A program made the translations under genes and the position numbers. A DNA stretch of 64,000 nt from Bacteroidales bacterium UBA2714 (GTDB taxonomy: Bacteria; Bacteroidota; Bacteroidia; Bacteroidales; P3), in the NCBI GenBank assembly GCA_002354035.1, contig DEKU01000020.1, positions 51,205-115,204 on the forward strand. Reading direction: 5' to 3'. The notes under the pieces were generated by a model, which was not told the DNA's origin, searched no databases, and saw only the letters and a list, made by a program, of their open reading frames with translations. Of the stretch, positions 9,112 through 55,685 are shown one piece after another; the stretch's first letter is position 1; each line of letters opens with the position of its first letter.

Positions 9112-9116
9112 ATTGC

Positions 9117-9320
9117 TTAATCTCCAAAAAAATTGTAGTCGTTGTCGCCAGGGTTGTCGAATTGTTCGTTTCTGAAATAGCCTTGGTGGGTGTTGTCTTC
9201 GAGGAAGTTAATGAACACCTCGTCAGCTTGGGTTGAATGCCTTACACTACCCAGGAATCCCTCTTCGATGGTAAAGGCTACAACTTTGATGCGTGGTGAT
9301 ATGTATTTATTCCGTTCCAT
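9117..9320 (-). CDS. conserved 67-aa leaderless acidic protein of unknown function (copy 1)
   Basis: MERNKYISPRIKVVAFTIEEGF...YFRNEQFDNPGDNDYNFFGD. It shares YI(S/T)PRI, YFRNEQF and a terminal DYNFFGD with the ORF at 14255..14455, in the same position between the protease and lipoprotein genes. Confidence 0.6.
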   Translation of the reverse strand: MERNKYISPRIKVVAFTIEEGFLGSVRHSTQADEVFINFLEDNTHQGYFRNEQFDNPGDNDYNFFGD

Positions 9321-9349
9321 TTTAATTGATTGCCATTTGTTGCAGACTG

Positions 9350-27401: not shown

Positions 27402-28223
27402 TTGAATAGACGGTTTTTCGACAAATTTTTTATGATGCATCGGCGTATATTGCTTTCTCTCATCTGCTTTTTGCCCCTCGTTGTGTGGGGTCAGGACTCT
27501 GCCCGTCAGCCCCTCTTCTTGGTCCTCGAAGGGGGTGGGGGCTTGGGTGTATATCGCGACGCGGGAGCGTCGCCGCTCCGCCATAGGGGCCCTCAGTTGG
27601 GAGGGTCGCTCGGCGTGGAGGCTAAGGGCAATATCTGGCAATGGGCTGCTGGCATGCGGCTGCAAGGCGGCGGCTATGGCTACAAGCTCGACGTCACGCA
27701 GCTGTTTGCCTATGGCGGGCAGCTTTCGGCTTACGGCGAGCTGTTGCGCCGGGTGGGCGGAACTTCCCCCCTCAGCTTCTGGGCTGGAGTGGGAGTCGAT
27801 GAGCTTTTCGACTTGCGCTATAACTCCCAGCTGAGCAACGCGAGTGTGGGGATGTCCAATTTTGTGCGGCTCCGCCTGACGGCGCGGGTGGAAGGTCATC
27901 GGCACGGCTGGATGGCCTGGGCCCAAGCATGGGTGGACCCGGTGGCACTGATGCTCAGACCGGGGTTCCCGTATGTGAATAATTACGACCGCGATATTGC
28001 CAACCCGGTGGCCTGTGCGCTGGACCAATACGGATGGTATGTGGCGGGCCTGACGGGCGTGGCCTCGCAGGTGGGTATCCGCCGCCATCTCAAGAGGGGC
28101 AACGCGCTGGGCTTGGCCTACAGTTGGCAGTATGTCACGTCAAGGACAGCGGAGGACACGGCGCCGTGGCGTTTCCAGCAAGCCTCGCATGGTTTAACCT
28201 TTCAACTTTTATTCTGTCTATGA
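27402..28223 (+). CDS. secreted beta-rich protein, possible outer-membrane beta-barrel (unknown family)
   Basis: Signal peptide (M)HRRILLSLICFLPLVVWGQ, so the true start may be 27432 or 27435. Gly/aromatic-rich alternating pattern. The stop overlaps the next ATG (ATGA at 28220..28223). The competing minus-strand ORF 27345..28088 is Arg/His/Pro-rich. Confidence 0.55.
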   Translation: MNRRFFDKFFMMHRRILLSLICFLPLVVWGQDSARQPLFLVLEGGGGLGVYRDAGASPLRHRGPQLGGSLGVEAKGNIWQWAAGMRLQGGGYGYKLDVTQLFAYGGQLSAYGELLRRVGGTSPLSFWAGVGVDELFDLRYNSQLSNASVGMSNFVRLRLTARVEGHRHGWMAWAQAWVDPVALMLRPGFPYVNNYDRDIANPVACALDQYGWYVAGLTGVASQVGIRRHLKRGNALGLAYSWQYVTSRTAEDTAPWRFQQASHGLTFQLLFCL

Positions 28224-29311
28224 ATAACTTGTCTCCTCGCCTCATTGGCCATACACCGGTGGTCTTTCTCCTGATGATTGTTGCCCAGCTGTCATTCTCC
28301 AGCTGTGAGCGCGCATTCCTGTATGACACTACCGCTACCCCGATGCACACTTTCGACTATTTGTGGCAGAGGGTGGACCAGCAGTATTCGATGTTCGACG
28401 TGAAGGGGGTGGACTGGCAGGCGGTGTATGATTCTCTCCGTCCGCAGGTGACCGACACGATGGGCGACGACAGCCTTTTTGCCCTTTGTGCCTCGATGTT
28501 GAATTGCCTGAACGACGGCCATGTGAACCTCGTCTCCTCGTTCGACGCCTCGCGTTCGGAGTCGGTCCACCATCGTTTCCATGCCCAGTCCGGCATTGAT
28601 GTCGACTTGGTGGTTCTGGACTACCTGGGTGTGGGCTATCACAGCACGGGAGGGATGGTGCATGGCCCTCTGTGCGACGGGAAGGTGATGTACCTTTATT
28701 ATGGTTCTTTCTCCAACACGGTGTCGGTGGCGGGTTTGCGCCGCATTGTCGATTCCTACCCAGAGGCCCAGGGCATGATACTGGACTTGCGGGGCAACGG
28801 GGGTGGCAATCTGGCCAATATCGACCGCATCCTGCGTGTGATGCCATCTCACGGGCAGGTGCTTTACCGAAGCCAGATCAAGGCCGGTCCAGCCCACGAC
28901 GCGTTCACGCCGCTGGAGCCCACCTATGCACCCCAAAGTGTCGACGACCCTTTCTTCCTCCCGGTAATCGTGCTGGTGGACCGAGGGTGTTTCAGCGCCA
29001 CAAGCACCTTTGCCATCGCCACACAGGCCTATGACAACATCTTCCTGATGGGCGACACGACGGGCGGTGGCCTCGGCCTGCCGACGATGGGGACACTGCC
29101 CAACGGATGGGTCTACCGCTTTTCCATCACCCGCACCATTGCCCTCGACGGCCGCAACTATGAGAACGGCGTCCCACCCGACATTCTGCTGCCTTTCGAC
29201 CGCGAGAGGGCCCACTCCCTGCGCCGCGACAATATCATCGACTCCGCCTGCGCCCTCCTCTTGGGCCAGTCCCTTGTTGCGGACAACAAGATGTCCGCAT
29301 TGTCAAACTAA
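28220..29311 (+). CDS. S41 family peptidase (lipoprotein)
   Basis: Start moved to MNNLSPRLIGHTPVVFLLMIVAQLSFSSC. Motifs ILDLRGNGGGNL and VLVDRGCFSATSTFA are S41 hallmarks. Confidence 0.8.
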   Translation: MNNLSPRLIGHTPVVFLLMIVAQLSFSSCERAFLYDTTATPMHTFDYLWQRVDQQYSMFDVKGVDWQAVYDSLRPQVTDTMGDDSLFALCASMLNCLNDGHVNLVSSFDASRSESVHHRFHAQSGIDVDLVVLDYLGVGYHSTGGMVHGPLCDGKVMYLYYGSFSNTVSVAGLRRIVDSYPEAQGMILDLRGNGGGNLANIDRILRVMPSHGQVLYRSQIKAGPAHDAFTPLEPTYAPQSVDDPFFLPVIVLVDRGCFSATSTFAIATQAYDNIFLMGDTTGGGLGLPTMGTLPNGWVYRFSITRTIALDGRNYENGVPPDILLPFDRERAHSLRRDNIIDSACALLLGQSLVADNKMSALSN

Positions 29312-29350: not shown

Positions 29351-32008
29351 ATGAAAATACTGATCAGAGCCAGTTACCCGAACTATCACATGGTGCGCCG
29401 CTATGCCATCAGCGGCCCCGAGGTGTTCAACTGCAACGTCGACGATGCCGACAACACCCTCGAGGGCAATAAGCCCGGCACGGTCATCTACACCCTTGAC
29501 GGCGAGGACACCCCTCGCGAGTTCCCACCCCGCTGGTACGACATGTACCACCTCCTCAAAACCCGTGGCGAGCGGAAGGAGCATTACCTGAAGCTGCTCC
29601 TGGCCGAACACGACGGCACAGCCACCCCTCAGCAAAAGGAGGAACTGGACGCACAGCGGCACAAGCTGCGCCAGGACATTGTCGACTATGTGGAGGCCAA
29701 CCCCCTGGTGGAAAACGACGAGGTCATCACGGCTCTCACCCCCCGCACTTTCACCGACTTCGAAATCAGCTACAAGGGCCGTATGCTCCTCGAGCTGACG
29801 CAGAACTATTACCCTGTGCCCGACTTCGTGATTCTCACCTCCCAGCTCTCCCGCCACCCCGAACATCTGGAGGAACGGCTGGCTCAGGCCATCTCAAACC
29901 TCGAGATCATGACCCACCTCACCCTCGGTCACGAGCACAACCCCCTTGTGTTTGCCATCCGTTGCGCCATGCCGCAGTACATCCCCGGCCTGATGCCCAC
30001 CCTCCTCAACATCGGTGTCACCCGCACAGCCTATCAGGCCCTTGCCAACCATTACGACAAGGGAATGGCCAACCGCGTCTACCTCTCCACCCTCCACACG
30101 CTCTGCGAAATGCTCGGCATCGAACGTAAGTACGACACTTCCGACATTTCCCTCTCCCTCCCCCTCCAGCAGCAGCGCATAGCGGATATGGAGAATGAAA
30201 TCATCCAGGCCCGTGCCGATGGCCACAAGCTGCTCACCGACGCCTTCTACCAAGCCCTCCAGCTCACCCGCCACGTCTATTCCTTCTACACCGACAACCA
30301 AGACCTCATCCTCACCTTCATGCAGGGCAAACAGGCCTCGCCCTCTCTCATCCTGCAGCGCATGGTCTGGACCATCGGCAACAATGCCTCCTATCCGGGC
30401 GTCCTCTACAGCCGCCATAGCCGCACCGGCAAGGGCAGCCAGATTGAGAGCTACCGCAATATCTTCGGCGAAGAGATTATGACGGGCGACGTCACCTCCG
30501 ACGACCGCTCCTACACCAACCGCGACACCATCAAGAACGAGTTCCCGGCCGTTTACCATTTCCATCCCCTCCTCGTCAAGCTTGAGGAGCGCTACCATTC
30601 GCCCGTAACTATCGAGTTCGCGGTCGAAACCCGTCCCCGACAGGTGAGCCTCTTCTCCGTCCTCCAGCTCAACATGAGCGAGATGACCGGCCGAGCCGCC
30701 CTCATCTCCGCCATCGACCTCCTGCGCGAGCACCGCATCTCCCGTTCGCAGGTCATGGACATCATCAAACCCTATCATCTGCGGCAAATCGTATCCGCCT
30801 CCATCGACGACCGCTCCATGCAGCGCCTCCAATACTTCGGTCGTGGCATCAGCGTCCTGCCCCGCACAGCCATCTCGGCCGTGCTCTGCTTCTCCGCCGC
30901 CAAGGCCCGCGAGATGGTGGCCAAAGGCTGCCAGGTCTGTCTCTGCCAGGAGCGTTTCGTCCCCGAGGACACCATCACCCTCAACGAGGTCCACGCCATC
31001 CTCAGCATGACCCCGGCCGCCATCCATGTGGTCACCGCCTGTCGCGGCTACGGCATCCCCGCCCTCCTCGACCTCCACAACTACGGCATCCATTTCGAGG
31101 AGCGAGACGGCCAGCAGGTAGTTGTCAACAGCGAGGGCCTCGTCCTGCACGAACTCGACAATATCACCCTCTCCAGCAAGCACCAAACCATCTACAAAGG
31201 CACCGCCGACTTCAAACCTGCCCGCTTCACCAAATATCTCAGGGGCGAGCCGGTCGAACTCTCACCCGACGAGGAGCAGTTCTTCAGCGACATGAAGAGC
31301 GCCTACGAGGTCTACCAGGAAATCGTCACCGTAGAGCAGGCACCCGTCATCGAAGACCTCGACAAACTGGCGCGCCTCATCCGCTGCGAACTCCAGGACC
31401 GTCCCGAGATAGCCAAAGACCTTGTCAACAGCTGGTATGCCTACCACGCTGACCAATACGTGCAGGAGGTGCTGCAAAGCAAAATGGGCTCGCACCTCGA
31501 CCAGTCGCGCGTCTTTCTCCTCCTCAACACCAACCGCCAGGTGGAGTTCTTCCAGTCCGTATCGAAAATATGTCTCGAACAGGGGCTCAACGGCCTCACC
31601 GCCGGCTCCTTCATGCTGGGCCGTTTCGTCTCTCGCCCCATCTCCCGTTCCGTCTGGAACCGCCTTAGCGACCGCATCGTAGCCTTCCTCCTCAACGAGT
31701 ATGTGCTCTATGAGAAGTACCAGCAGGTGCTGGCCGAGGTGGGCGAAATACGTCTGGCCCGTGCCCACAGCCGCATCGAGACCGAAGGCATCGACAATAT
31801 GACCATCCACAATTTCGACCTCACCACTTTCGTACCCCTCATCTGCTCCTCTCACGACTGGGGACATATAGCGGCCGAACTCGAAAGCATCGACCATCAG
31901 GACAACACCCACATCCTTGTCCAAAAACTGTCCCGTCCCCTCGAAGAGATTTTCGACCTTTCGCAGCCCTACAAAGCCCAGCAAATCCAGCAACTCCGCG
32001 ACTTATGA
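29351..32008 (+). CDS. pyruvate-phosphate-dikinase-like protein: degenerate ATP-grasp plus phosphohistidine swivel domain, with the PEP/pyruvate TIM barrel replaced by a ~300 aa helical domain
   Basis: 885 aa, collinear with PPDK landmarks. NPLVFAIRCAMPQYIPGLMPTLLNIGV matches PLLVSVRSGA..SMPGMMDTILNLGL. GVLYSRHSRTGKG...GEEIMTG matches GVAFTRNPSTGEK...GEDVVAG. MTPAAIHVVTACRGYGIP matches GGMTSHAAVVARGMG. No GTNDLTQ or CGEHGGDP motifs occur in the C-terminal third. Confidence 0.7.
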   Translation: MKILIRASYPNYHMVRRYAISGPEVFNCNVDDADNTLEGNKPGTVIYTLDGEDTPREFPPRWYDMYHLLKTRGERKEHYLKLLLAEHDGTATPQQKEELDAQRHKLRQDIVDYVEANPLVENDEVITALTPRTFTDFEISYKGRMLLELTQNYYPVPDFVILTSQLSRHPEHLEERLAQAISNLEIMTHLTLGHEHNPLVFAIRCAMPQYIPGLMPTLLNIGVTRTAYQALANHYDKGMANRVYLSTLHTLCEMLGIERKYDTSDISLSLPLQQQRIADMENEIIQARADGHKLLTDAFYQALQLTRHVYSFYTDNQDLILTFMQGKQASPSLILQRMVWTIGNNASYPGVLYSRHSRTGKGSQIESYRNIFGEEIMTGDVTSDDRSYTNRDTIKNEFPAVYHFHPLLVKLEERYHSPVTIEFAVETRPRQVSLFSVLQLNMSEMTGRAALISAIDLLREHRISRSQVMDIIKPYHLRQIVSASIDDRSMQRLQYFGRGISVLPRTAISAVLCFSAAKAREMVAKGCQVCLCQERFVPEDTITLNEVHAILSMTPAAIHVVTACRGYGIPALLDLHNYGIHFEERDGQQVVVNSEGLVLHELDNITLSSKHQTIYKGTADFKPARFTKYLRGEPVELSPDEEQFFSDMKSAYEVYQEIVTVEQAPVIEDLDKLARLIRCELQDRPEIAKDLVNSWYAYHADQYVQEVLQSKMGSHLDQSRVFLLLNTNRQVEFFQSVSKICLEQGLNGLTAGSFMLGRFVSRPISRSVWNRLSDRIVAFLLNEYVLYEKYQQVLAEVGEIRLARAHSRIETEGIDNMTIHNFDLTTFVPLICSSHDWGHIAAELESIDHQDNTHILVQKLSRPLEEIFDLSQPYKAQQIQQLRDL

Positions 32009-32793
32009 CCTCACGGCTTCTCATCCTCTTTGCCGCTCTTGCCCTCAGCCTCCATGCCTGGGGGCAAACCACGGCCACGGTGCCGGACACCCTGCCGGAC
32101 ACCCTCGCGGCCCTTCCCGCTCCCACCCCCGACTATGCCGTGCTCAACTACCTCCAGAATCACCGCACTCCCGTCGCCAACCGAGTCATGATAGGCATCA
32201 GCAACACCTTTGTCCTCGCGCCTCTCCCGGCCGCGGTCCATGCGGTGGCGGCCCTTGCCTCGGCCGGTTCCGACTCCCGTTCGCGGCTCAGCGACGATGC
32301 TTTCGAGGCCTCGCTCACCATGGGTCTGTGCGCCGCGGCCACCATGGGCCTGAAAAACACCATCGGTCGACCGCGCCCGTGGGTCACCTACCGGGGCCGA
32401 CTGGTGTGCCTCCAGCATGTGGCGAGCGCCTCGTTCCCGTCGGGGCATACCTCTTTCACCTTTGCCGCCGCCACCTCGATGGCGCTGCTCCACCCCCAAT
32501 GGTATTGTGTAGTACCTGCCTATCTGTGGGCCACAGCCGTGGGCTTCAGCAGGCTGTACATCGGTGCTCACTATCCCTCCGACGTTCTGGCGGGTGCCTT
32601 GGTGGGGGTTGGCAGCGCACTGCTGTCGCACTACATCCGCTCCCGCCTGTCCGCCGCCCAGCCCGACCCCGTCTCGGCTGCCACCGGCGCGGCGGTGAAT
32701 CATGTCGCTCCGCCTGTGGCGACTGGCGCCACAAGCGGAATGCTGCCCCCTGCGCCCAGCATATTCATGCTGCCGGTGACGCTGGTTTTCTGA
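32005..32793 (+). CDS. PAP2 family (acid/lipid) phosphatase, membrane-bound
   Basis: 262 aa. All three PAP2 motifs are present: KNTIGRPRP, PSGHTS, SRLYIGAHYPSD. The ATG overlaps the stop of the PPDK-like gene (ATGA at 32005..32008). Confidence 0.85.
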   Translation: MTSRLLILFAALALSLHAWGQTTATVPDTLPDTLAALPAPTPDYAVLNYLQNHRTPVANRVMIGISNTFVLAPLPAAVHAVAALASAGSDSRSRLSDDAFEASLTMGLCAAATMGLKNTIGRPRPWVTYRGRLVCLQHVASASFPSGHTSFTFAAATSMALLHPQWYCVVPAYLWATAVGFSRLYIGAHYPSDVLAGALVGVGSALLSHYIRSRLSAAQPDPVSAATGAAVNHVAPPVATGATSGMLPPAPSIFMLPVTLVF

Positions 32794-32969: not shown

Positions 32970-33818
32970 CTACAGGAGGCCGGTGTACCATTCTTTGAAG
33001 GATTGCACGCGGGCTTTGGGAATGATGATGCGGTCGGGCGTGGGAACGGTGAGGGTCAGTGTGTATTTGCCCAGCAGCCACACCGATATGTCCTTGATGG
33101 CGTTGTGGGCCACGATATATTGGCGGTTGGCGCGGAAGAAGGCCGAGGGGTCGAGCTGGGTCATGATGATGTCGAGGGGTTTGTCGAGGGGGTGGGTGGT
33201 GCCGTCCTGCATCAGGGCCAGGGTGGAGCTGTGGCTGGCGGGGTTGGAGTTGTCGATGTAGATGCAGGCTATCTGGCTCACGTCGATGGGCACAAGCTTG
33301 TCGCGCAGGGGGATGAGGAAGTAGCGCTTGTATTGGTGGTAGTGGCGGTCCAGCATGTCGATGGCGTGGTGGAGGGCGTCGTCGTGTGCTGGGGGAGGAG
33401 GGGTTCGGCTGGCCAGTTTGTCGAGGGCGCGGCGCAGGTCGTTGGGGCTGATGGGTTTGAGCAGATAGTCGATGCTGTTGACTTGGAAGGCTTGCAGGGC
33501 GTACTGGTCGTAGGCGGTGGTGAAGATGATGGGGCAGGGGACTTCCACTTGGTCGAAGATGCGGAAGGCGAGGCCGTCGGCCAGGTGGATGTCCATAAAC
33601 ACCATGTCGGGCAAGGCGGGGTGGGTGGAGGTCGGGAAATCGGGATGGAGGGAATGATGGGCGGGTTCGGCGCATCCGGCGGAGCGGAACCATTCGACCG
33701 ACTCTTCGACTGATTGCAGCAGAGCCAGCACTTGCACTTCGGGTGCCACGGCGGCCAGCTGGCGGGTGAGATGTTGTACAGCGACGTTCTCGTCTTCGAT
33801 TATCAATGCTGTTGACAT
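32970..33818 (-). CDS. LytTR-family two-component response regulator
   Basis: Receiver domain (ALIIEDENVAV..., phospho-acceptor context MVFMDIHLADG, TTAYDQYALQAF) plus a C-terminal LytTR DNA-binding domain. The start is taken at MSTALIIEDE; the track start at 33875 would overlap the kinase gene by 41 nt. There is a ~20 aa insertion in the receiver domain. Confidence 0.8.
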   Translation of the reverse strand: MSTALIIEDENVAVQHLTRQLAAVAPEVQVLALLQSVEESVEWFRSAGCAEPAHHSLHPDFPTSTHPALPDMVFMDIHLADGLAFRIFDQVEVPCPIIFTTAYDQYALQAFQVNSIDYLLKPISPNDLRRALDKLASRTPPPPAHDDALHHAIDMLDRHYHQYKRYFLIPLRDKLVPIDVSQIACIYIDNSNPASHSSTLALMQDGTTHPLDKPLDIIMTQLDPSAFFRANRQYIVAHNAIKDISVWLLGKYTLTLTVPTPDRIIIPKARVQSFKEWYTGLL

Positions 33819-33834
33819 GGTGGGATGGGTGGTT

Positions 33835-34953
33835 TCAGGAGTGACTGTTTTCGAATTGGAGTGGTATTTCGACACTGAAGGTGGTGTCGGTTTGCGAGAT
33901 GGATATGTCGCGGCGCAGCACCAGCCGGCATCGTTCGCTGAGGTTGGTGAGGCCGATGCTTCCGTGGTGGCCGTGGTCGGGGCCGTCCTTGGGCTGCAGG
34001 GGGTTGGAGACGCAGAGCGAGTGGAGGGTGTGGCCGTCGGGAGCAGTGGTGGTGCGGGTGGCGATGGTGACGGTGAGCGGATGGCGGTCGCTCACGATGT
34101 TGTGCTGCAAGGCGTTTTCGACCAACAGCTGGACGCTGATGGGCACCACGTTTGCCGAGAGGCATTGGGGGTCGATGTGGGTGGAGACTTTGAATCCGTT
34201 GCCGTAGCGCAGTTGCATCATGGCTATGAAATTGTCGGTGAATCGCATTTCGTCGGCCAGTGTCACCTGCCGTTGCTGTTGCATGATGTAGCGGTAGGAG
34301 AGGGCCAGCTGGTGGAGGTATTCGTGTGCCCGCTGGTCGTCGTAGCCGATCAGTCCGTCGAGGGTGTTGAGGGAGTTGAAGAGGAAGTGGGGGTCGATTT
34401 GTTTTTCGAGGGCGTCGTAGCGTGTTTGGAGGCTTTCGGAGTTGGAGCGCTCCTCTTCCAGAAGGAGCTGTTGGTGGCGGGTCAGGTTGTAGAGCAGGAG
34501 GGTGATGAGGATGACCGTCAGGGCCACAAAGCCGTCGCGGATCATGCTGATGTCTATCCGGATGGGTATGCCGAGGGAGGGGAAGAGGCCGTTGGCGACC
34601 CAGGCTGAAAGGGTGCTGAAACCTAAGGCGATGGCCAAAGAGCCGCCGATGGACCATGCAAGGCTGACGGCTGAGCTGTGGATGTCTGTGTTACGGGAGG
34701 TCGGGACACTGGGATGTTCGGTGAGACGGCGGAAGATGGCAAAGTTGTAGTGGAAAAGGATGAGGCTGAGAATGAGCAGCTGGATGAGAGTGAAAAGGGT
34801 GTGGGACGTTGAGGGAGGAGTGAATTGGGCAAAGCGGAGGTCGTCGACATGCACGATGGCGGTAAGGATGACACTGGTGATGAGCGCCAGAAGGTTGGCG
34901 TTGCCAGGCTTGTAGGGGTGGGCCATGCGGCGGGTGCTTAGGGCTGAGAGCAT
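33835..34953 (-). CDS. LytS/YehU-type sensor histidine kinase
   Basis: 372 aa. An N-terminal membrane domain, then the His_kinase motif HFLFNSLNTL and an ATPase N-box VENALQHN. Confidence 0.8.
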   Translation of the reverse strand: MLSALSTRRMAHPYKPGNANLLALITSVILTAIVHVDDLRFAQFTPPSTSHTLFTLIQLLILSLILFHYNFAIFRRLTEHPSVPTSRNTDIHSSAVSLAWSIGGSLAIALGFSTLSAWVANGLFPSLGIPIRIDISMIRDGFVALTVILITLLLYNLTRHQQLLLEEERSNSESLQTRYDALEKQIDPHFLFNSLNTLDGLIGYDDQRAHEYLHQLALSYRYIMQQQRQVTLADEMRFTDNFIAMMQLRYGNGFKVSTHIDPQCLSANVVPISVQLLVENALQHNIVSDRHPLTVTIATRTTTAPDGHTLHSLCVSNPLQPKDGPDHGHHGSIGLTNLSERCRLVLRRDISISQTDTTFSVEIPLQFENSHS

Positions 34954-35041: not shown

Positions 35042-36214
35042 TCATTTTAGGCGAAATTGTTTGGCGAAGCGGAGGCAGAAGCAGCTGGTGACAAAGTAGA
35101 GGGCTGTCTGGAGCCACAGCATGAGGTATTCGAACTTTACTCCCGCCAGTGTGGAACCCATCGTGTTGATGCGGATGAAGCCCTGGATGCCGTGGGTGGA
35201 GGGGAAGAGGTAGGAGAGTGTGCGCCAGAAGGGGGGCATGTTGCAGGCAGGCCAGATGGCTCCCGAAAGGAAAAGGAGTATGACGCTGAAGAAGATGCAG
35301 GTGACGATGCCGGTGTCGCGTTCGCGGACGAAGCTGCACACTGTCATGCAGAAGAAGATGGTGGCCAGCATGAATGGGAGCAGGAAGAGGCAGAGGTCGG
35401 TGAGACGGCCGATGTGGGGCAGGTCGAACAGGCGGGGTATAAGCACAAGGTCGATGGCCACCACGGGGACGTAGAGCAGCAAGTAGGCCAAGGCGCGACC
35501 TATCACCACGCGGGGACGGCCGTCGCGACGCAGCCGTGGGGGGATGACGCGGAGGGTTTCGCGGTCTTCGCGGGCGGTGCCGAAAAGGATGCCTATGCCG
35601 AGAAAGAGGGTCTGGTGGATGATGAGCACGAGGAGTGCGGGGACCAGAAAACTGGTGAATCCCCCGGTGGGGGAGTAGAGTTTCACATCGTCGTAGGGGA
35701 TGGGTTTGATGAGTTCGTCGGCGCTTTCGCCGGTTATGCCCACTAATGAGTAGCGCTGGAGCTCGATTTGTTGCAGCTCGTCGAGCAGCACGTTGCTGGC
35801 GGCAGAGAGGACGCCACGGTAGTAGAGGAAGCTGCTCATGTCGCAGAAGAGACATACGCGGGCGGTCTCGTGGCGGGAAAGGCGTTGGTCGTAGTCGCGC
35901 GGGAAGAGGAAGATGCCGTTGATGTTGCGCTGCTCCATGAGGTGACGGGCTTCCTCCATATTGCAGCAATGGTAGTCGACCCGTAGTTCGGGGGTGGCGT
36001 CGAGTTTGTGGATGAACCGTCGCGAGGCGTCGCTGCGCGACTCGTCGACTACGGCCACGGGCAGATTGCGCACGAGCTCGTTTTTGTAGATGGCCCCGAA
36101 GATGAGGGGATAGATGAGAGTGGCGATGAAGAAGATGAGCATGACGCCTTTGTCGCACAGCACACGGCGAAGCTCAATCACGTATACGTCCCAGATATCT
36201 TTAAGTACGTTCAT
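35042..36214 (-). CDS. ABC-2 type transporter permease
   Basis: 390 aa. One N-terminal TM helix, a large loop, then five or more C-terminal TM helices (YhhJ/YbhR-like topology). Confidence 0.75.
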   Translation of the reverse strand: MNVLKDIWDVYVIELRRVLCDKGVMLIFFIATLIYPLIFGAIYKNELVRNLPVAVVDESRSDASRRFIHKLDATPELRVDYHCCNMEEARHLMEQRNINGIFLFPRDYDQRLSRHETARVCLFCDMSSFLYYRGVLSAASNVLLDELQQIELQRYSLVGITGESADELIKPIPYDDVKLYSPTGGFTSFLVPALLVLIIHQTLFLGIGILFGTAREDRETLRVIPPRLRRDGRPRVVIGRALAYLLLYVPVVAIDLVLIPRLFDLPHIGRLTDLCLFLLPFMLATIFFCMTVCSFVRERDTGIVTCIFFSVILLFLSGAIWPACNMPPFWRTLSYLFPSTHGIQGFIRINTMGSTLAGVKFEYLMLWLQTALYFVTSCFCLRFAKQFRLK

Positions 36215-36233
36215 GGCTGGTAGAGGAGTGTAA

Positions 36234-37424
36234 TCAGATTGATGGGTTGACAGTTGGGTTGATGGTGGGTTGGGAGGAAGGCTGAGTGGCAGCCTGGCGT
36301 GTCAGCAGCAGGGTTCCGACCAGACCTGTGAGCAGGAAGGCCAGGAGGGCGGCTACCTGCCAGTAGCAGCTGGCGAATCCCGAGCCGAAAAGGGAAATGC
36401 GCGACACGGCCATATAGTAGTGGCGCAGTGGGAAGATGAGGCTGAAGCCTTGCAGAGCGGGTGGCATGCTGGTGACGGGATAGGAGAAGCCGGACATGGT
36501 GAAGGCCAGGGTGCCATAGATGGCGGCAAAACAGGTGGAGAGGTGGGCGTCGGGGATGATGGCACTGAGGAAGACGGCCGTGGCTTGCATGGCCATGACC
36601 AGCAGGATGGTGAAGAGGGCCACGAGCCAGAAGCTGCCGTGCAGCTCGAAACCGCACCACCCGAACAGAACCAGGTTGCCTATGACGCCGAGCAGGGAGA
36701 ACCAGAGGGTGTAGGGAGCCATTTTGCCCAGCAGAGCAGGGAGGGCACCTGCTGCAAGCCATTGGGAGAGGGTTCCCTCGCGGCGCTCTACACCGACCAT
36801 GTAAACCGTAAGCAGCAGGACGAAAAGCCCCAACATGCCAGGCAGCATGGTGGTGAGGACGTAGGGCTGGTAGTTGGCCATGGGGTTGCTGATGAGGTGG
36901 GTGTCGAGTTCGATGGGTTGGATGAGTCCCATGATTTGGCTTTCGTTGAGGCCTTTTTTGCGCAGCACTTCGCGTTGCACGGCTCCGGAGGCGAGGTTGC
37001 TGATGGTGGCCAGTGTGCGGTAGCTGAGTGCGCCGCTGAGGAGGTAGGCATTGTTGCTGTAGAGCACAAGATGGGGCCGGGTGAAGGAAAGGACGTCGTT
37101 ATAGGTGCCGGCGGGTATTTCAAGAAAGGCATAAATCTCCTGCCGCTGCATGGCTTGTCGGGCAGCGGTATGGGAACTGTAGACATTCACCACGCGGACA
37201 CCTTGGCAGGCATTGATTTCGTGGCAAAGGCGGCGGGAGAGGTAGCTGCCGTCTTTGTCGACGATGGCTATGGGCAGCCTTTGGGGCTGCCCTTCGTCCA
37301 TCAACGTGAGGAAGAAGACGTAGCAGAACACCAGGCCCAAAGAAGTGAGGATGAGGTATCGGGATTGGCCTCGGCTCCACAGTCGTTTCAGTTCACGTCT
37401 CAAAGAAATGATGAAAGTATGCAT
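36234..37424 (-). CDS. ABC-2 type transporter permease (paralogue)
   Basis: 396 aa with the same topology as the neighbouring permease. Confidence 0.75.
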   Translation of the reverse strand: MHTFIISLRRELKRLWSRGQSRYLILTSLGLVFCYVFFLTLMDEGQPQRLPIAIVDKDGSYLSRRLCHEINACQGVRVVNVYSSHTAARQAMQRQEIYAFLEIPAGTYNDVLSFTRPHLVLYSNNAYLLSGALSYRTLATISNLASGAVQREVLRKKGLNESQIMGLIQPIELDTHLISNPMANYQPYVLTTMLPGMLGLFVLLLTVYMVGVERREGTLSQWLAAGALPALLGKMAPYTLWFSLLGVIGNLVLFGWCGFELHGSFWLVALFTILLVMAMQATAVFLSAIIPDAHLSTCFAAIYGTLAFTMSGFSYPVTSMPPALQGFSLIFPLRHYYMAVSRISLFGSGFASCYWQVAALLAFLLTGLVGTLLLTRQAATQPSSQPTINPTVNPSI

Positions 37425-45042: not shown

Positions 45043-46524
45043 TTATTCCTTGAATTTCTTGTCTAACTCTTCAATCCAGAAACGGAATTGCTTGTCGGTC
45101 GCGGCCAGGTTGGAAACCGTCTTGCAGGCGTGCAGAACGGTGGCGTGGTCCTTATTGCCGCACTGCAGGCCTATGATGGCCAGCGACGACTTGGTGAGCT
45201 TCTTGGCATAGTACATGGTCAGCTGGCGTGCCTGGACAATCTCGCGCTTGCGGGTGCGGGACTGGATGCTCTCGATGGGGATGTTGAAATAGTCGCACAC
45301 CACCTTCTGGATGTAGTCTATTGTCACCTCCCGATTGGTACTCTTCACAAACTTGTCCACCATCTGGCGGGCCAGGTCGATGGTGATGTCGCGGTGGTTC
45401 AGTGACGACTGTGCCATGAGCGATATCAGCGCTCCCTCCAGCTCGCGGACGTTCGTGTTGATATTGTAGGCGATGTACTCTATCACCTCATCGGGCATCT
45501 CCACACCGTCGTTGGCCAGTTTTTGGCGCAGGATGCTCATGCGGGTCTCCACGTCGGGCGGCAGCAGTTCGGCGGCCAGTCCCCATTTCAGGCGCGAAGT
45601 GAGGCGTGTCTCTAACCCTTGCAGCTCGCTCGGAGCCTTGTCGCTGGTGATGATAATCTGCTTGTTGGCCTGGTGCAGGGTATTGAAGATGTGGAAGAAG
45701 GCCTCCTGTGTGCGACCAGCCTTGTTGCTCCAGAACTGGATATCGTCCACTATCAGCACATCAATCATCTCGTAGAAGTGCACAAAGTCCGATGTGGTGC
45801 CGCTGCGGCCCGCATCCATATACTGCTGCATGAATTGCTCAGAGGTGACATATAGCACAGTCAGTTCGGGGTGCAGCTCCTTGGTCTTCAATCCTATTGC
45901 ATTGGCCAAATGGGTCTTGCCGAGCCCCACTCCCCCATGCAGCATCAAGGGGTTGAACGCTGTCTTGCCGGGCTTCTCGGCCACGGCATAGCCTGCCGCG
46001 CGGGCCAGACGGTTGCACTCGCCCTCTACATAATTGTGCAGTGTGTACGACGAACTCAGCTGCGAGTTGATGCGCACCTTCTGGATGCCCGGAATCACAA
46101 AAGGATTGGGTATCTCGCGCGTGTCGCCGCGCCTGATGTCCATAGGCACATCGCGTGGCTGGTTCACGGTCGACTGCTTCCCTGTCGAAGGCATGCGTGT
46201 GGTCAGCGGCTTGTCGGCTATGCTGGTGTCCATCACCACGCTGTACTGAAGGCATGCGTCGTTGCCCAGCGTCAGCTGTATGGCGCGTTTCAGCAGGTCG
46301 GCATAGTTCTGCTCCAACCATTCATAGAAGAACGGGCTGGGCACCTTTATTATTAAGGTGCTGCCATCAAGTTTCATCGGAACGATAGGCTCAAACCATG
46401 TGCTGAACACCTTCTCATTCTCTTTCCCGGTCAGGTTGTCCTTGATAAAACCAAGGCACTCTTCCCATACTTTTTGGTAGTCCTTCTCCATCCTCGTGCT
46501 GTTTGTTTCGTTATTGTTGTTCAT
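45043..46524 (-). CDS. dnaA: chromosomal replication initiator DnaA
   Basis: AAA+ Walker A HGGVGLGKTHLANAIG, box VII/sensor segments, and a C-terminal DNA-binding domain (ATVLHACKTV). The start is moved to MNNNNETNSTRMEKDYQKVWEECL; the upstream part of the track ORF is Arg-rich junk. Confidence 0.93.
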   Translation of the reverse strand: MNNNNETNSTRMEKDYQKVWEECLGFIKDNLTGKENEKVFSTWFEPIVPMKLDGSTLIIKVPSPFFYEWLEQNYADLLKRAIQLTLGNDACLQYSVVMDTSIADKPLTTRMPSTGKQSTVNQPRDVPMDIRRGDTREIPNPFVIPGIQKVRINSQLSSSYTLHNYVEGECNRLARAAGYAVAEKPGKTAFNPLMLHGGVGLGKTHLANAIGLKTKELHPELTVLYVTSEQFMQQYMDAGRSGTTSDFVHFYEMIDVLIVDDIQFWSNKAGRTQEAFFHIFNTLHQANKQIIITSDKAPSELQGLETRLTSRLKWGLAAELLPPDVETRMSILRQKLANDGVEMPDEVIEYIAYNINTNVRELEGALISLMAQSSLNHRDITIDLARQMVDKFVKSTNREVTIDYIQKVVCDYFNIPIESIQSRTRKREIVQARQLTMYYAKKLTKSSLAIIGLQCGNKDHATVLHACKTVSNLAATDKQFRFWIEELDKKFKE

Positions 46525-47348
46525 TTTGCTTCGTTTCTCTTTTTGTGGCCTGCGGCGGTCTGCGGCGCGGCCTTTACTGTTTTTCAAACACCGGCTTGTT
46601 GAAAAGCTCAGCCCCCTGCACTGTCTCTGTTCCACTTATGAAGCATCCCTCGGACGATGTTTACAATGCAAAAATGCAACAAAAATATCACCTGTCAAGG
46701 TGAAAAATAAATTTGCACATTTCGCGAAAAAAATGTAAAGCAACGGCACTCTCGGCACTCACTTGCCAACCTCCTACCCCTCAAAAAAACTGAAAAATAA
46801 TCTTTTTGCTTTCGAAGGCCCATTTTTCGGCCGTGTAAAATACGATTTTTTCCCCATTTTTCAAAAAATTTTTTCGACTTTTCATCCCTGGAACGCCATT
46901 TTGTTGATAAGCCAACCAACTTGTTGACCAATAGTCCAATATTATTTAATATCTATCCTAACGTGCCGATATTAAGCGGTTTGCGTACAATTATCTGATA
47001 ATCATTGCCCACTCTTCCACCCCTCTTTTTTTAACTCCCTAATCCTCAAAAGTATGTTTTTTTATTCACACATTCCAGTTCAAAAGTATATTTTTTTTCA
47101 CCCCCTCCCGGAGTTAGAAAAAATGCCTCTCCATCCCTCCCCCTCCCTTCGCCAGCACCGCCTCCGACGCCCTTTCCATCCTCCTGCGTCGCCCTGTTAT
47201 TCCCCCTCGGCACCACCTCCCCGCACAGCCCAAAATATTTTTTTCAAAGAAATAACTCATTATTATAAAAAAAAAGAGTACCTTTGCAAATCGAATCAAC
47301 AAGACAAAAAACACAGAAAACAATATAAAACTTTTAAATTCAAATCAA
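46525..47348. other. candidate oriC / dnaA-serC intergenic spacer
   Basis: An 824-nt non-coding gap next to dnaA with long A/T runs (46690..47100). One exact TTATNCACA DnaA box (TTATTCACA, 47062..47070) and a one-mismatch box on the other strand (TTATCAACA, rc of 46902..46910). The box density is low, so this is only a candidate. Confidence 0.35.
47279..47286 (+). promoter_or_regulatory. -7 box TACCTTTG upstream of serC
   Basis: Matches TAnnTTTG, about 63 nt upstream of the serC ATG. Confidence 0.4.
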
Positions 47349-52167: not shown

Positions 52168-54825
52168 TTAGAAGTCGAAACCGGCGCTGAGGTAAACACC
52201 CCAGGGCGAGGGCTGGTTGTAGCGTGACCAGTGGACGTTGAACAAGATGGGACCGATGAGCGATTTGTGGCCGTATTGCAGTGCAAAGGCATAGTCGGTA
52301 AGGGTGTTCAAGCGATACGCGGATGATTCCTCAGCATCGATATCGCCGGCCAATGTGCTGAATCCGGCAACGGTGAAGGAGATGTAGTCTTTGGGGGCGA
52401 TTTGCCAGCGGAAATCGATATTGGCCACAACTTCGGCATGGGAGTAGGAGAAGAAGTGGGGCATAATGTAGCCGATGTATGGAAGTTGGTTTTCGTAGAA
52501 TCGTCCGGGAGTGATGCCACCGATATAGCTTTCCATCCATGAAGGGACTATGCCTTCGATGATTCTGCCTTCTAATAACTGGATGTTGGAGTGGAGCCAG
52601 AGCGAGGGCAGGATGGTGAAGGCTTTGGCAACAGGGATGGCGGCCTTGATATGGGCATTGATGTTGTTGGATCTATAGTAAATGTGCTCGATCGTATTAT
52701 ACCATGCGTCAGGGTAGCAGTAGTGGTAGATGTAATAGTCGTAACGGAAGCGGGCGTTGATGCCTTTGGTGGGGAAGTAGCTGTCGTCGGTATTGTCGTA
52801 GGTGGCTTCGAAGAAAGGGGCGACGACGAAGTGGTCCCAGTTGTTCACGGAGTCGGCACGCAGGCCGTTCCACGTTCTTCTGAGGGTGTCGGCGAAATAA
52901 TAGACGGTGTCTATGATGTAGGTACCGCCTTCTTGGATGGTGTCGTATCTCTGATGCCATATATAGACGGGTTCGAAAGCGGTTTTCCGCTCGAAGGGTG
53001 AAACATAGAATTTGACACCCAACCGTATGGCACCGTGGCGCCAGGAGTGGGTTAGACTGTAGAGGTCGACGGTGTTGTACCAAGATGTCAGCGTGTTGAA
53101 CCCTTCGGCGAGATTGGTCTGGGCCGAGTACTGCTCGATGGTCTGGTAGCGGGTGTGGATGTTGAGGCCCAACGAAGGACCGTTGAGGAAAGCGTATAAG
53201 AAGTTGACGGTTGCGGATGGGTTGTTGCCGATGACGGCCGAGAAGTCGGCTTTGAAGCCGGAGAGTTTGCGCCTGTTGAGACCGATGTTGAAGGCGGCGG
53301 AGAGCATGGTTTTGGTGTCGAACCGCAGTCCGAAACCGAACTGATGGATGGGGCCGCGCTTGCAGTGGAAGGCAAGGGTGAAGGGCTCCTTGTCGCCGTA
53401 GAGGCTGTAGGACACTTGGTCGAAGAGACCTGAGCCGTACATGAGGGCAAGCTCTTCCTCGATGTCGTCGCTGCTGTAGGCATGGCCTTTTTGAATACTG
53501 CAGTTTTTCTCGAAGTAGGAGACGATGTCGGGTTTAATGCCTTCGTAGACGACGTTGCCGATAACCACTTTGCGGTTGTGGATATTGATGCCGGGGGTGT
53601 TGTTGAGCGGACGGGTTTGGGTGGCTCCGACCTTCTGCAGGATGGTCTCAAGCCCCTCGGCCTGGCTCTGTGCGGCGACATAGCCGCGGTGGAGGCATTC
53701 GGCGATGGAGGCGGAGTCGAAACTCATCATGTTCATGCCCGACATGTCGGGGTGGATGTAGACGTCGGCCAAGGGGAGGTTGTTGTCGAAGGCGTCTTTG
53801 CCCATCAGCGAGATGCACTGCATGAGGAGGTTGGCCATTCCGCTGATTTCGGAATAGGTGCGGGGCTGACTGAGGTCAACGCCGATGATGTAGTCGGCTC
53901 CCATGGCGCGTGCCATATCGGTGGGGAAGTTGTTGCGGGTGCCGCCGTCGATGTAGATGCGTCCATCCTGACGGACGGGCGTGAAGAAGAAGGGGATGGA
54001 CATGGTGGAGCGCATGGCATCGGCCAGGTGGCCGTGGGTCCAGTATTTGGCTTTCATCGTGACTAAGTCGGTGGCCACGCAGCAGTAGGGGATGGGCAGG
54101 TCGCAGAAGTCCATCGAGTCCTGGTAGCCCACCGTGAGGCTGTTGATGGTGTTGTTGACATTGTAGCCGTAGATGTAGCCGTCGGGGAGGTTGGAGATGA
54201 GGTTGGCGGTGTATGACTGTCCCATCTCGGAGGAGGTGAGGGGATTGGCGGTTTCGTTGGCTTTGCGGGTGATATAGTCTTCGCGTTGCCGGCGTTCCCA
54301 CTCTTCGCTCTCGTAGCGGAAGGGGGAGCGGATGAAGTAGGTCTCGTTGTATTTGCGTCGCATGTACGACATCTTGTTGACGGGCACCTGGTCGCTGAGC
54401 ATCACGCCCCAGTTGGTGGAGGTGAGGATGGTGTCGATGGCTTTGCTGGAGTAGCCCATGGCAACCAGGCCACCTACAAGACCGCCCATGCTGGTGCCGA
54501 GCACCATGTCGATGGGGATGCCCAACTCTTCGATATACTCGAGGGCACCCACATGGGCTGCCCCCTTGGCACCTCCGCCGGCCAGCACCAGGGCCACGGT
54601 GGGACGGTGGCGGCGGATGGAGTCCATGCGGAGGCGCATTTTGACAATGGCGACGGAGTCGGCGGATGGGTCGATGCTGGGTGTGGCAAGGTGGCGGACC
54701 AGCATGGAGGCTTCCTGCTTAATCTTGGAGAGGTTTTTGGACTGTTTGGCTGGCCGGCTCTGGGCCATGAGGCCGGAGGCACTCAGCACGAGGATGACCA
54801 GTATGGCGACGGCGTTTTTCATCAT
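52168..54825 (-). CDS. patatin-like phospholipase fused to an Omp85/BamA-type beta-barrel
   Basis: Start moved to MMKNAVAILVILVLSASGLMAQ. Patatin motifs LVLAGGGAKGAAHVG and GTSMGG, DGG later, and a C-terminal ~400 aa beta-barrel ending GVYLSAGFDF. Confidence 0.8.
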   Translation of the reverse strand: MMKNAVAILVILVLSASGLMAQSRPAKQSKNLSKIKQEASMLVRHLATPSIDPSADSVAIVKMRLRMDSIRRHRPTVALVLAGGGAKGAAHVGALEYIEELGIPIDMVLGTSMGGLVGGLVAMGYSSKAIDTILTSTNWGVMLSDQVPVNKMSYMRRKYNETYFIRSPFRYESEEWERRQREDYITRKANETANPLTSSEMGQSYTANLISNLPDGYIYGYNVNNTINSLTVGYQDSMDFCDLPIPYCCVATDLVTMKAKYWTHGHLADAMRSTMSIPFFFTPVRQDGRIYIDGGTRNNFPTDMARAMGADYIIGVDLSQPRTYSEISGMANLLMQCISLMGKDAFDNNLPLADVYIHPDMSGMNMMSFDSASIAECLHRGYVAAQSQAEGLETILQKVGATQTRPLNNTPGINIHNRKVVIGNVVYEGIKPDIVSYFEKNCSIQKGHAYSSDDIEEELALMYGSGLFDQVSYSLYGDKEPFTLAFHCKRGPIHQFGFGLRFDTKTMLSAAFNIGLNRRKLSGFKADFSAVIGNNPSATVNFLYAFLNGPSLGLNIHTRYQTIEQYSAQTNLAEGFNTLTSWYNTVDLYSLTHSWRHGAIRLGVKFYVSPFERKTAFEPVYIWHQRYDTIQEGGTYIIDTVYYFADTLRRTWNGLRADSVNNWDHFVVAPFFEATYDNTDDSYFPTKGINARFRYDYYIYHYCYPDAWYNTIEHIYYRSNNINAHIKAAIPVAKAFTILPSLWLHSNIQLLEGRIIEGIVPSWMESYIGGITPGRFYENQLPYIGYIMPHFFSYSHAEVVANIDFRWQIAPKDYISFTVAGFSTLAGDIDAEESSAYRLNTLTDYAFALQYGHKSLIGPILFNVHWSRYNQPSPWGVYLSAGFDF

Positions 54826-54842
54826 AATGGCGAGGGGTTTGA

Positions 54843-55685
54843 TTAGAAACTGAGGACGGTGACCACGGGATAGTGGTCGGAGATGTAGGGCACACCATAG
54901 TCGTCGGTGAGGGTGCGGAAGGATTTGACTTTGCTCCATCCGCGGACGAAGAAGTGGTCAATCTGGGCCGGAGTGCCTTTGCCGAAGGCGTTGTAGGTGG
55001 TGGCACTGTCGGAGATCTCGGCCAGGTCGCGTGCCGAAGTGAGGTCGTGCATTTCCATGGGGTCGAAGATTTTGTCCTGCAAGGAGGAGTTCATGTCGCC
55101 ACCCATCACGCAGGGAACGTGGTAGGGCAGGGCCAGAGTGCAGAGCAGTTTGACAGAACTCTTCCGGGCCAAGGAGCCTACGTGGTCGAGGTGGGTGTTG
55201 AAGTAAACGAAGAGGCTGTCGGTCAGTTTGTCGCGGAAAAGGCCGACGGTGACGGTGCGGCGGCATGCGGCGTCCCATCCAAGGCTGACGGTTCTGGGGG
55301 TGTTGCTCAGCCAGTAGGTCTTTTGTTCGAGCAGTTCGAGGCGGTCGGTGCGGTAGAAGATGCACATGATTTCGCCCTCGCGGCGGCCGTCGTCGCGTCC
55401 CACGCCGAAGCTTTTGTATTCCCCGGCCAGGGCGCTGTCGAGATAGTCGAGCTGGTGGGGCAGCACTTCTTGCATGCCGATGGCGTCGGGGGCCTCCTTT
55501 CGAATCATTTCTACGACGGCTTCTTTGCGGTGCGACCAGGCATTTTCGCCGTCCTCACGCTCGGCCCATTCGCTGCCGTTGCGGATGTTGAACGACATGA
55601 ATTTGAGGTCGTGGTTTTTGTCGGTGAGTTGGGAGCTACCCATTGCAAGGGTTGCAATCAGTAAGATGATACTTATTTTTTTCAT
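54843..55685 (-). CDS. endonuclease/exonuclease/phosphatase (EEP) family protein, secreted
   Basis: 280 aa. Signal peptide, MSFNIRNG...GMQEV, and a terminal SDHYPV motif. Confidence 0.8.
   Translation of the reverse strand: MKKISIILLIATLAMGSSQLTDKNHDLKFMSFNIRNGSEWAEREDGENAWSHRKEAVVEMIRKEAPDAIGMQEVLPHQLDYLDSALAGEYKSFGVGRDDGRREGEIMCIFYRTDRLELLEQKTYWLSNTPRTVSLGWDAACRRTVTVGLFRDKLTDSLFVYFNTHLDHVGSLARKSSVKLLCTLALPYHVPCVMGGDMNSSLQDKIFDPMEMHDLTSARDLAEISDSATTYNAFGKGTPAQIDHFFVRGWSKVKSFRTLTDDYGVPYISDHYPVVTVLSF

Follow-up and report, generated by a model that had tools for sequence, protein, structure and literature searches.

The DNA stretch analysed here, a 64,000-nt window of contig DEKU01000020.1 (positions 51,205 to 115,204 of the forward strand) from Bacteroidales bacterium UBA2714, contains an intact open reading frame (ORF) for an 885 amino acid (aa) protein related to pyruvate phosphate dikinase (PPDK). 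The gene is flanked by genes for an S41 peptidase and a PAP2-family phosphatase (Table 1). Its GC content resembles that of the surroundings, and its start codon is right, since homologous proteins align from residue 1 through to the end. The protein comprises four domains: an N-terminal extension, a PPDK-type ATP-grasp domain, a swivelling phosphohistidine domain and a C-terminal all-alpha domain, which stands in place of the phosphoenolpyruvate (PEP)/pyruvate TIM barrel of PPDK. Sequence comparison and structure prediction identify it as a PPDK-derived paralogue in the PEP-utilising/dikinase superfamily: ATP-grasp and mobile His domains are present in one polypeptide, and the equivalents of PPDK Lys22 and of the phosphocarrier His are kept.

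Domain architecture of the PPDK-like protein

The PPDK profile TIGR01828 matched residues 142-630 of the protein (profile positions 21-516 of 865, E=9.9e-36), and PPDK sequences from the PDB (5jvj, 1dik and others) aligned over the same stretch with E~1e-17. The collinearity with PPDK stated in the initial annotation thus extends over the ATP-grasp and swivel modules, and over these first two modules only. The TIGR01828 score of the whole protein, 123.1 bits, was far under the curated equivalog cut-off of 843.45, and PRK05878, a short 534-position 'PPDK' profile, gave 84 bits (cut-off 456) compared with 123 for the full-length PPDK profile. Alignment of AAIHVVTACRGYG to TSHAAVVARGWG/MG and to TSHAAVVARGMG places H559 on PPDK H455, which agrees with the earlier proposal that the swivel His is retained. 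Furthermore, AIRCAMPQYIPGLMPT aligned to SVRSAARASMPGMMDT of PPDK and RCAMPQYIPGLMPT to RSAARASMPGMMDT of PPDK; translations and codons were checked.

An AlphaFold model of the full-length protein, built with 32 homologues, was of moderate quality (predicted local distance difference test (pLDDT) 75). Foldseek comparison of this model with the PDB detected PPDK as the best match (E=8e-23); PEP synthase (5e-5), rifampin phosphotransferase (RPH; 1e-4) and HpeI followed far behind. The PPDK mutant structures 2DIK (R337A) and 1JDE (K22A) were among the matches, and the swivel domain matched the phosphoryl carrier domain of PPDK (2fm4) with a TMt of 0.74.

The C-terminal part of the protein is unrelated to that of PPDK. 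No Pfam match to PF02896 (PEP-utilizers_C) was obtained in the 885-aa protein, and none of the barrel motifs GTNDL, NDLTQ and CGEHGG occurs anywhere in it. A canonical 1016-aa PPDK from a related locus (L093), aligned with the protein, has FGTNDLHQ and CGEHGG. An AlphaFold model of residues 621-885, built with 21 diverse homologues, showed 15 helices and no strands at good confidence (pLDDT 87, predicted template modelling score (pTM) 0.81), and this region is all-helical in both AlphaFold models. A cryptic TIM barrel, for which a check by AlphaFold and Foldseek had been proposed, is therefore ruled out. The earlier claim that the PEP/pyruvate barrel was lost and a new all-alpha domain gained agrees with every structural test. 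The helical end without barrel motifs is present as described, with a length of about 265 aa rather than ~300 aa.

Foldseek searches with the C-terminal domain found nothing credible: the best matches had E=0.31 (TM about 0.25) in the PDB and E=0.91 in BFVD and were generic helical repeats. No RPH chain was found among the 50 best matches listed, and no match of any kind reached E<=0.001. A profile of the domain gave only chance-level matches (PfEMP1, LapB) to PDB sequences. Assignment to the Pfam family DUF1376 was rejected as spurious because only 1 of 21 members showed the match (E=7e-4).

The N-terminal extension, given before as ~100 aa, is present and comprises about 120-135 aa, K142 being the equivalent of PPDK K22. 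The extension was modelled as a small beta-sheet with long helices (pLDDT 60-94) and contains an invariant aspartate, D64. It is conserved and specific to the family (family hidden Markov model (HMM) match, E=2e-30). We detected no credible relatives of it in the PDB or Pfam: all PDB profile matches had E>=0.07, and a match to PDZ_1 was rejected, as it reached only E=0.05 in 1 of 14 members.

Distribution and conservation of the family

The window protein has matches in more than 900 clusters at 90% identity. The best 120 of these all consist of proteins of about 885 aa from Bacteroidales metagenome-assembled genomes (MAGs), 64-99% identical to the query. A scan with one genome per GTDB species revealed relatives in at least 358 species genomes; the best 80 of the 358 are all uncultured Bacteroidales/Bacteroidetes MAGs, mostly from ruminant gut. 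Identity across the rumen Bacteroidales members sampled is about 65%. Distant members (23-50% identity) were found in environmental Bacteroidota, Cloacimonadota, Chlorobi-type bins, Margulisbacteria and Saganbacteria. Family HMMs, one per module, detected all four modules in every branch. Where a name is given, these proteins are called 'hypothetical protein' or, automatically, 'phosphoenolpyruvate synthase/pyruvate phosphate dikinase'.

When 1.84 billion representative proteins were searched exhaustively with the C-terminal domain alone, no more than 86 clusters were obtained. Among complete proteins, the domain always occurs together with PPDK-like modules, at about residues 590-890 of an 800-920-aa protein, with P0167 (1550 aa) as the sole exception in placement. 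The protein is thus no lone relic: it belongs to a widespread, strongly conserved four-domain bacterial family. The term 'degenerate' used in the initial annotation is therefore misleading for a family under strong constraint in hundreds of species.

Some lineages show tandem duplication and fusion within the family. P0167 is a head-to-tail fusion of two copies that are complete except for the N-terminal extension. Two or three paralogues lie side by side at L093 (5959-8502, +) and L153 (6379-8487 and 8872-9294, both +), and some of them lack the N- and/or C-terminal domains.

Among 23 diverse members with 23-61% identity to the query, seven residues of the catalytic modules never vary: K142, R204, G213, M215, E422, Q439 and H559. 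They correspond to K22, R92, G101, M103, E323, Q335 and H455 of PPDK, respectively. In 79 members below 55% identity (23-55%) the same seven positions are at least 99% conserved, with the His present in 79 of 79. The ATP-grasp residues and the swivel His, whose loss across homologues had been named as a sign of a relic, are accordingly retained. T217 in the phosphate loop is also invariant. Lys22 is essential for binding the ATP polyphosphate in RPH and PPDK (PMC4844700). The swivel loop carries the nearly invariant family motif S-L-[ST]-P-A-A-I-H-V-V-T. The flanking motifs thus align with those of PPDK as first described; what was read as erosion is a new motif of the family.

In conservation the C-terminal domain comes close to the catalytic modules: distant members share, as a pairwise mean, 37% identity in this domain, compared with 45% in the ATP-grasp and 50% in the His domain. 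The C-terminal domain contains a set of invariant residues (E641, G713-x-H715, G748, G752, F754, G757, W769, E783, Y790 and P863), and the polar ones among them are, as a pattern of conservation, typical of a binding or catalytic site and not of a mere spacer.

Gene neighbourhood and a permuted enolase in distant branches

We compared the gene neighbourhood at 173 loci, including about 90 from Bacteroidales and 75 from distant branches. In 38 Bacteroidales loci the gene is directly preceded (position -1) by an S41 peptidase gene (64-100% identity), which is absent in L005 and in all distant branches. The PAP2 gene is found at +1 in only 14 loci, where the homologues are 70-85% identical to the window protein, and is absent in L001, L005 and all distant branches. 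A functional coupling to the S41 peptidase and the PAP2 phosphatase was rejected on these grounds, the synteny being limited to a clade. Across most of the family the gene stands alone, and in other Bacteroidales and the distant branches its neighbours are unrelated.

The remaining neighbours that recur (a sensor kinase, SelA, DPP-IV, a sulfatase, a beta-lactamase-fold protein, an alpha-galactosidase, LarA and a C69 peptidase) share no relation with one another. The idea that the family is generally tied to glycolysis genes was also rejected: an adjacent GAPDH occurs at 2 loci and an adjacent canonical PPDK at 2, and CTP synthase adjoins the gene at 3 related loci. Nor did the gene or its neighbours give a PADLOC match, and an anti-phage defence system was discarded as an explanation. 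At L093 a canonical three-domain PPDK and a second family paralogue adjoin the family member; the presence of the canonical enzyme next to it indicates an additional function and no replacement of PPDK.

In 9 of the 75 distant loci, a large enolase homologue adjoins the gene. These loci differ in gene arrangement and fall into at least three divergent sub-branches, whose family members are 27-30%, 37% and 38-39% identical to the window protein. The orientation of the enolase gene is often convergent or divergent and not operonic. No such adjacency was found in the about 90 Bacteroidales loci, including the window. The enolase of L099 is circularly permuted: its barrel (residues 281-571) aligns to residues 143-411 of canonical enolase, and the enolase N-domain follows after it (592-757). 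The enolase catalytic motifs are retained. The N-terminal extension of the permuted enolases comprises roughly 280-350 aa and shows weak Peptidase_M50-type Pfam matches.

This enolase family is very conserved, with 73-77% identity over more than 100 clusters. Its named members are mostly from Terriglobales, with one Elusimicrobia MAG, and are labelled 'enolase' or 'hypothetical'; a literature search revealed no description of the family. No Bacteroidales were found among the 120 best relatives of the L099 enolase, all of which are at least 73% identical to this probably acidobacterial query. The cluster at L092, in a Saganbacteria MAG, encodes a family member, a permuted enolase, a 264-aa PGK-like protein and a GAPDH-like protein. 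The latter (L092:7836-8948, +) resembles GAPDH/erythrose-4-phosphate (E4P) dehydrogenase, and both its catalytic Cys (SCTT to SFMT) and its catalytic His (tiHs to iiQa) are replaced, so that it is probably a pseudo-enzyme.

The window itself contains further genes. The two genes immediately 3' of the PAP2 gene encode a response regulator of the LytTR type and its paired sensor, a His_kinase (PF06580) protein (32970-34953, -), and two ABC-2 permease genes (35042-37424) come next. Other loci showed no link of these genes to the PPDK-like gene. The region 7117-17367 (-) contains a module of two genes in tandem duplicate. Each copy encodes a ~955-aa C10 (streptopain-like) cysteine peptidase (9350-12229 and 14500-17367), which carries a Spi-inhibitor prodomain and InlB-type repeats, and a GLUG-motif protein of ~665 aa (7117-9111 and 12262-14265). 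The ORF at 52168-54939 (-) encodes a 922-aa protein with a patatin-like phospholipase domain and a C-terminal Omp85-superfamily beta-barrel. The presence of dnaA (45043-46635, -) raises the possibility that the chromosomal replication origin is not far from the window; no clear turning point of the cumulative GC skew was evident at dnaA.

Table 1. Positions of the PPDK-like gene, its domains and key residues, the adjoining genes (window coordinates) and the permuted enolases of distant loci (locus coordinates).
Feature	Position	Strand	Basis
Whole gene, 885-aa four-domain PPDK-like protein	29351..32008 (end includes stop codon)	+	ORF, full-length homologues
N-terminal extension, residues 1-135	29351..29755	+	AlphaFold model, family HMM
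PPDK-type ATP-grasp nucleotide-binding domain, residues 136-480	29756..30790	+	TIGR01828, PDB and L093 PPDK alignments
K142 codon, equivalent to PPDK/RPH Lys22, ATP polyphosphate binding	29774..29776	+	Alignment, invariance
R204-T217, RCAMPQYIPGLMPT, equivalent to PPDK R92...G101-M103 phosphate loop	29960..30001	+	Alignments
E422...Q439-L-N441, equivalent to PPDK E323, Q335, R337	30614..30673	+	Alignments
Swivelling phosphohistidine (PEP-utilizers mobile) domain, residues 481-620	30791..31210	+	PF00391, PPDK alignment, Foldseek
H559 codon, predicted phosphocarrier His, equivalent to PPDK H455	31025..31027	+	Alignment
C-terminal all-alpha domain, residues 621-885, in place of the PEP/pyruvate TIM barrel	31211..32005	+	AlphaFold
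G713-S-H715, invariant Gly-x-His motif of the C-terminal domain	31487..31495	+	Conservation
E783...Y790 (EYVLYEKY), invariant Glu and Tyr of the C-terminal domain	31697..31720	+	Conservation
Upstream S41 (tail-specific-type) peptidase gene	28223..29311	+	Pfam; 39 nt before the gene
Downstream PAP2-family phosphatase gene	32005..32793	+	Pfam E=6.7e-22; ATG overlaps the stop of the gene by 4 nt
Permuted enolase (800-1200 aa)	L099:8416-10851	-	
Permuted enolase (800-1200 aa)	L093:8563-12093	+	
Permuted enolase (800-1200 aa)	L153:3367-6264	+	
Permuted enolase (800-1200 aa)	L092:9088-12693	+	

Proposed function and alternative explanations

The dikinase superfamily comprises PPDK, PEP synthase, glucan water dikinases, rifampin phosphotransferase, phenol and hydroxyphenylethanone kinases and VadK. 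The family described here fits none of PPDK, the VadK type and the RPH type; it represents a new four-domain architecture, in which two domains match no known fold. PPDK (EC 2.7.9.1; TIGR01828; 1DIK/1KBL/5JVJ) is the best match of the whole protein in sequence and structure. It has the same order and fold of the ATP-grasp and swivel modules and the same short type of phosphate loop. In contrast to PPDK, the family has an unrelated all-alpha domain instead of the TIM barrel and the extra N-terminal domain, and the window protein has N, T and PAAIH where PPDK has R337, D321 and GGMTSH. Because PAAIH replaces GGMTSH, the regulatory Thr at -2 is missing from the family motif, which has Ala at this position. 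The PPDK reaction (ATP + Pi + pyruvate = AMP + PPi + PEP) is not expected without the barrel. PEP synthase (PpsA; 2OLS) shows the same module order and is of the water-dikinase type that we infer for the family, but it has a PEP/pyruvate barrel and is a much weaker match than PPDK.

An ATP-grasp domain and a swivel His combined with a non-barrel acceptor domain, as proposed for the family, are found in RPH and in HpeHI, CreHI and PpsAB (PMC4844700, PMC12167813). In these RPH-type dikinases Lys22 is essential, and ATP is converted to AMP + Pi with the phosphate moved through the His (PMC4844700, PMC12167813). The analogy to rifampicin phosphotransferase drawn in the initial annotation applies to this principle alone; it does not extend to the domain order or to the substrate-binding domain. 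The RPH-type order is ATP-grasp, substrate-binding domain and swivel domain (or two subunits), whereas the family has the order N-terminal domain, ATP-grasp, swivel and C-terminal domain. Moreover, the ATP-grasp domain of these dikinases is of the PEP-synthase type and that of the family of the PPDK type, and the RPH structures 5hv2 and 5hv6 were weak whole-protein Foldseek matches (E~1e-4) through the shared modules only.

On balance, we consider it probable that the protein is a catalytically active cytoplasmic dikinase-type phosphotransferase derived from PPDK. This reading builds on the homology to PPDK over the ATP-grasp and swivel domains, the conserved residues, the fixed swivel motif, the conservation of the C-terminal domain, the four-domain architecture shared across phyla and the canonical PPDK beside a family member at L093. 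It also builds on the known re-use of the ATP-grasp and swivel-His pair with other acceptor modules in RPH (PMC4844700) and HpeHI/PpsAB (PMC12167813), and on the barrel-less VadK (PMC13400623). The mechanism can be drawn by analogy with PPDK, PEP synthase and rifampin phosphotransferase. ATP would be held in the ATP-grasp domain by K142, R204 and the G213-M215 loop, with E422 and Q439 as putative Mg2+ ligands, and His559 of the swivel domain would attack it and become phosphorylated. The swivel domain would then carry the phosphate to a second site other than a PEP/pyruvate TIM barrel. This site may be formed by the helical C-terminal domain (His715, Glu783, Tyr790, Glu641, Trp769), possibly together with the N-terminal domain, and there the phosphate would be passed to the acceptor.

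The GKR that follows R337 in PPDK becomes x-E-(L/M)-(T/S)-G in the family, and the basic residues of QTRxGKR change to Q-x-N-x-x-E. From the mutagenesis literature on the C. symbiosum enzyme, we take R337 to belong to the Pi/PPi site of PPDK. Given the loss of these basic residues, orthophosphate is probably no co-substrate, and an enzyme of the water-dikinase type (ATP -> AMP + Pi) is likelier.

Several observations count against an active phosphotransferase. PPDK D321 is changed to T, M, L or V throughout the family (T420 in the window protein), and R337 is replaced by N, rarely D (N441). The motif T/S-x-x-G-G-x-x-x-H is common to the swivel domains of PPDK, PEP synthase, RPH and PtsI (PMC12167813), but the swivel loop of the family is one residue shorter and lacks the Gly-Gly, so that the phosphotransfer chemistry could be altered or lost. 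Both Pfam models of the catalytic modules scored under their gathering thresholds (PF01326 (PPDK_N), 21.8 bits with a cut-off of 27; PF00391 (PEP-utilizers), E=0.036). The pTM of the full-length model was only 0.58, which leaves the inter-domain geometry uncertain, and AlphaFold confidence was low precisely at the His loop and the GEEIMTG loop. The invariant residues of the C-terminal domain could serve protein binding or the binding of an allosteric ligand instead. Finally, the gene context in the clade of the window offers no clue to a substrate, and no acceptor could be proposed.

On the other hand, N441 and the PAAIH motif show that the changed positions have become fixed in their turn, and this argues for a re-tuned site rather than decay. 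The conservation pattern as a whole points to a re-tuned active enzyme.

The closest functional precedent, by analogy, is VadK (Rv1127c) of M. tuberculosis, and it adds a regulatory alternative that was absent from the initial annotation. Like the family, VadK has lost the pyruvate/PEP domain and kept the ATP-binding domain and the swivel His. It autophosphorylates at this His with ATP and Mg2+ and interacts with the methylcitrate-cycle enzymes encoded nearby, so that barrel-less PPDK paralogues can function (PMC13400623). The protein of the window could accordingly be a regulatory phosphoprotein: His559 would autophosphorylate, no metabolite would receive the phosphate, and the phospho-form would bind or phosphorylate partner enzymes through the C- and N-terminal domains and tune metabolism, in some lineages perhaps lower glycolysis. 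All-alpha domains often serve as scaffolds for protein interaction, and helical-repeat scaffolds make up the weak Foldseek matches of the C-terminal domain. Moreover, in several deep branches the adjoining genes encode enzyme paralogues and not transporters or catabolic proteins: the permuted enolase (9 loci), the proteins of L092 that resemble GAPDH and PGK, and the canonical PPDK of L093.

VadK, however, is a truncated protein of about 490 aa with two domains (490-530 aa for the VadK type), compared with about 885 aa and four domains in the family, and the two extra domains, with invariant His, Glu and Tyr, resemble a ligand-binding or active site. It is also actinobacterial and linked to prpDC, whereas the family occurs in Bacteroidota and other phyla, and most of the family, including the clade of the window, has no conserved partner gene. 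Since PRK05878, which possibly represents the VadK type, matched more weakly than full-length PPDK, an origin independent of VadK is likely. A VadK-like regulatory role is the strongest competitor of the phosphotransferase reading; we regard it as possible but rather unlikely.

The neighbours in the distant branches allow a broader interpretation, which is speculative and which we rate as improbable. The family could form the core of a phosphotransfer system not recognised before, in which phosphate would be handed to a partner enzyme or to a second histidine, His715, instead of a metabolite in a barrel of its own, and the N- and C-terminal domains would couple it to proteins derived from glycolysis. 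The coupled proteins would be the permuted enolase, the dead GAPDH-like and the short PGK-like protein, in Saganbacteria-type, Terriglobales-like and other lineages. If true, this would be a new PEP- or ATP-linked regulatory or energy-coupling module made from recycled glycolytic enzymes.

Alternatively, the protein could be one half of a split dikinase, whose second active site would be provided in trans by a partner docked at the C-terminal domain; in some phyla the candidate would be the permuted enolase, a binder of PEP/2-phosphoglycerate. Two-component dikinases are known (HpeHI, CreHI and PpsAB; PMC12167813). The enolase has kept its catalytic motifs, and its occurrence next to the gene in at least three divergent sub-branches with differing arrangements is consistent with such a partnership. 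Against it, the adjacency is restricted to 9 of 75 distant loci and none of the about 90 Bacteroidales loci, the enolase genes are often convergent or divergent, no Bacteroidales appeared among the 120 best relatives of the permuted enolase, and the enolase barrel is unrelated to the barrel of PEP utilizers. We also know of no chemistry that exchanges phospho-His with an enolase-bound ligand, and consider a split dikinase very unlikely.

A pseudo-enzyme or structural relic, the other option of the initial annotation, would have PPDK-derived modules that no longer bind ATP or carry phosphate and would act as a scaffold. The loss of the third catalytic domain would fit this idea, as would the loss of D321, R337 and the Gly-Gly swivel loop, the sub-threshold Pfam scores and the association at L092 with a GAPDH-like protein devoid of its catalytic Cys and His. 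A relic is not expected to keep invariant catalytic residues, yet the phosphocarrier His is present in all 79 distant members and the six ATP-grasp residues are at least 99% conserved at 23-55% identity; fixation of N441 and PAAIH also speaks against decay. This explanation is therefore disfavoured, and we give it little credence.

An ordinary, divergent PPDK or PEP synthase with a cryptic PEP/pyruvate TIM barrel, as the automatic names of some members and the PPDK-like length of 885 aa might suggest, is refuted, within the limits of sequence and structure prediction, by the strand-free 15-helix model of the C-terminal domain (pLDDT 87), the lack of PF02896, GTNDL and CGEHGG, the TIGR01828 match of 123 bits (cut-off 843) restricted to profile positions 21-516 and the canonical three-domain PPDK encoded beside a family member at L093, and we attach next to no probability to it.

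The ATP-grasp and swivel-His pair is a portable engine for difficult phosphorylations, and the family, as a PPDK-derived phosphotransferase, would be another independent re-use of it. Modular re-use of this kind is already known; here it would concern an abundant and conserved family in anaerobes of gut, rumen and sediment that is unannotated or mis-annotated. The link to the permuted enolase in other phyla offers a concrete, testable entry point. Once the acceptor is identified, abundant rumen Bacteroidales would have a functional assignment for one of their conserved genes, and a recurrent false 'PPDK' call that can distort metabolic reconstructions would be corrected. Either a new phosphorylated metabolite or a new layer of metabolic regulation of the VadK kind may also come to light.

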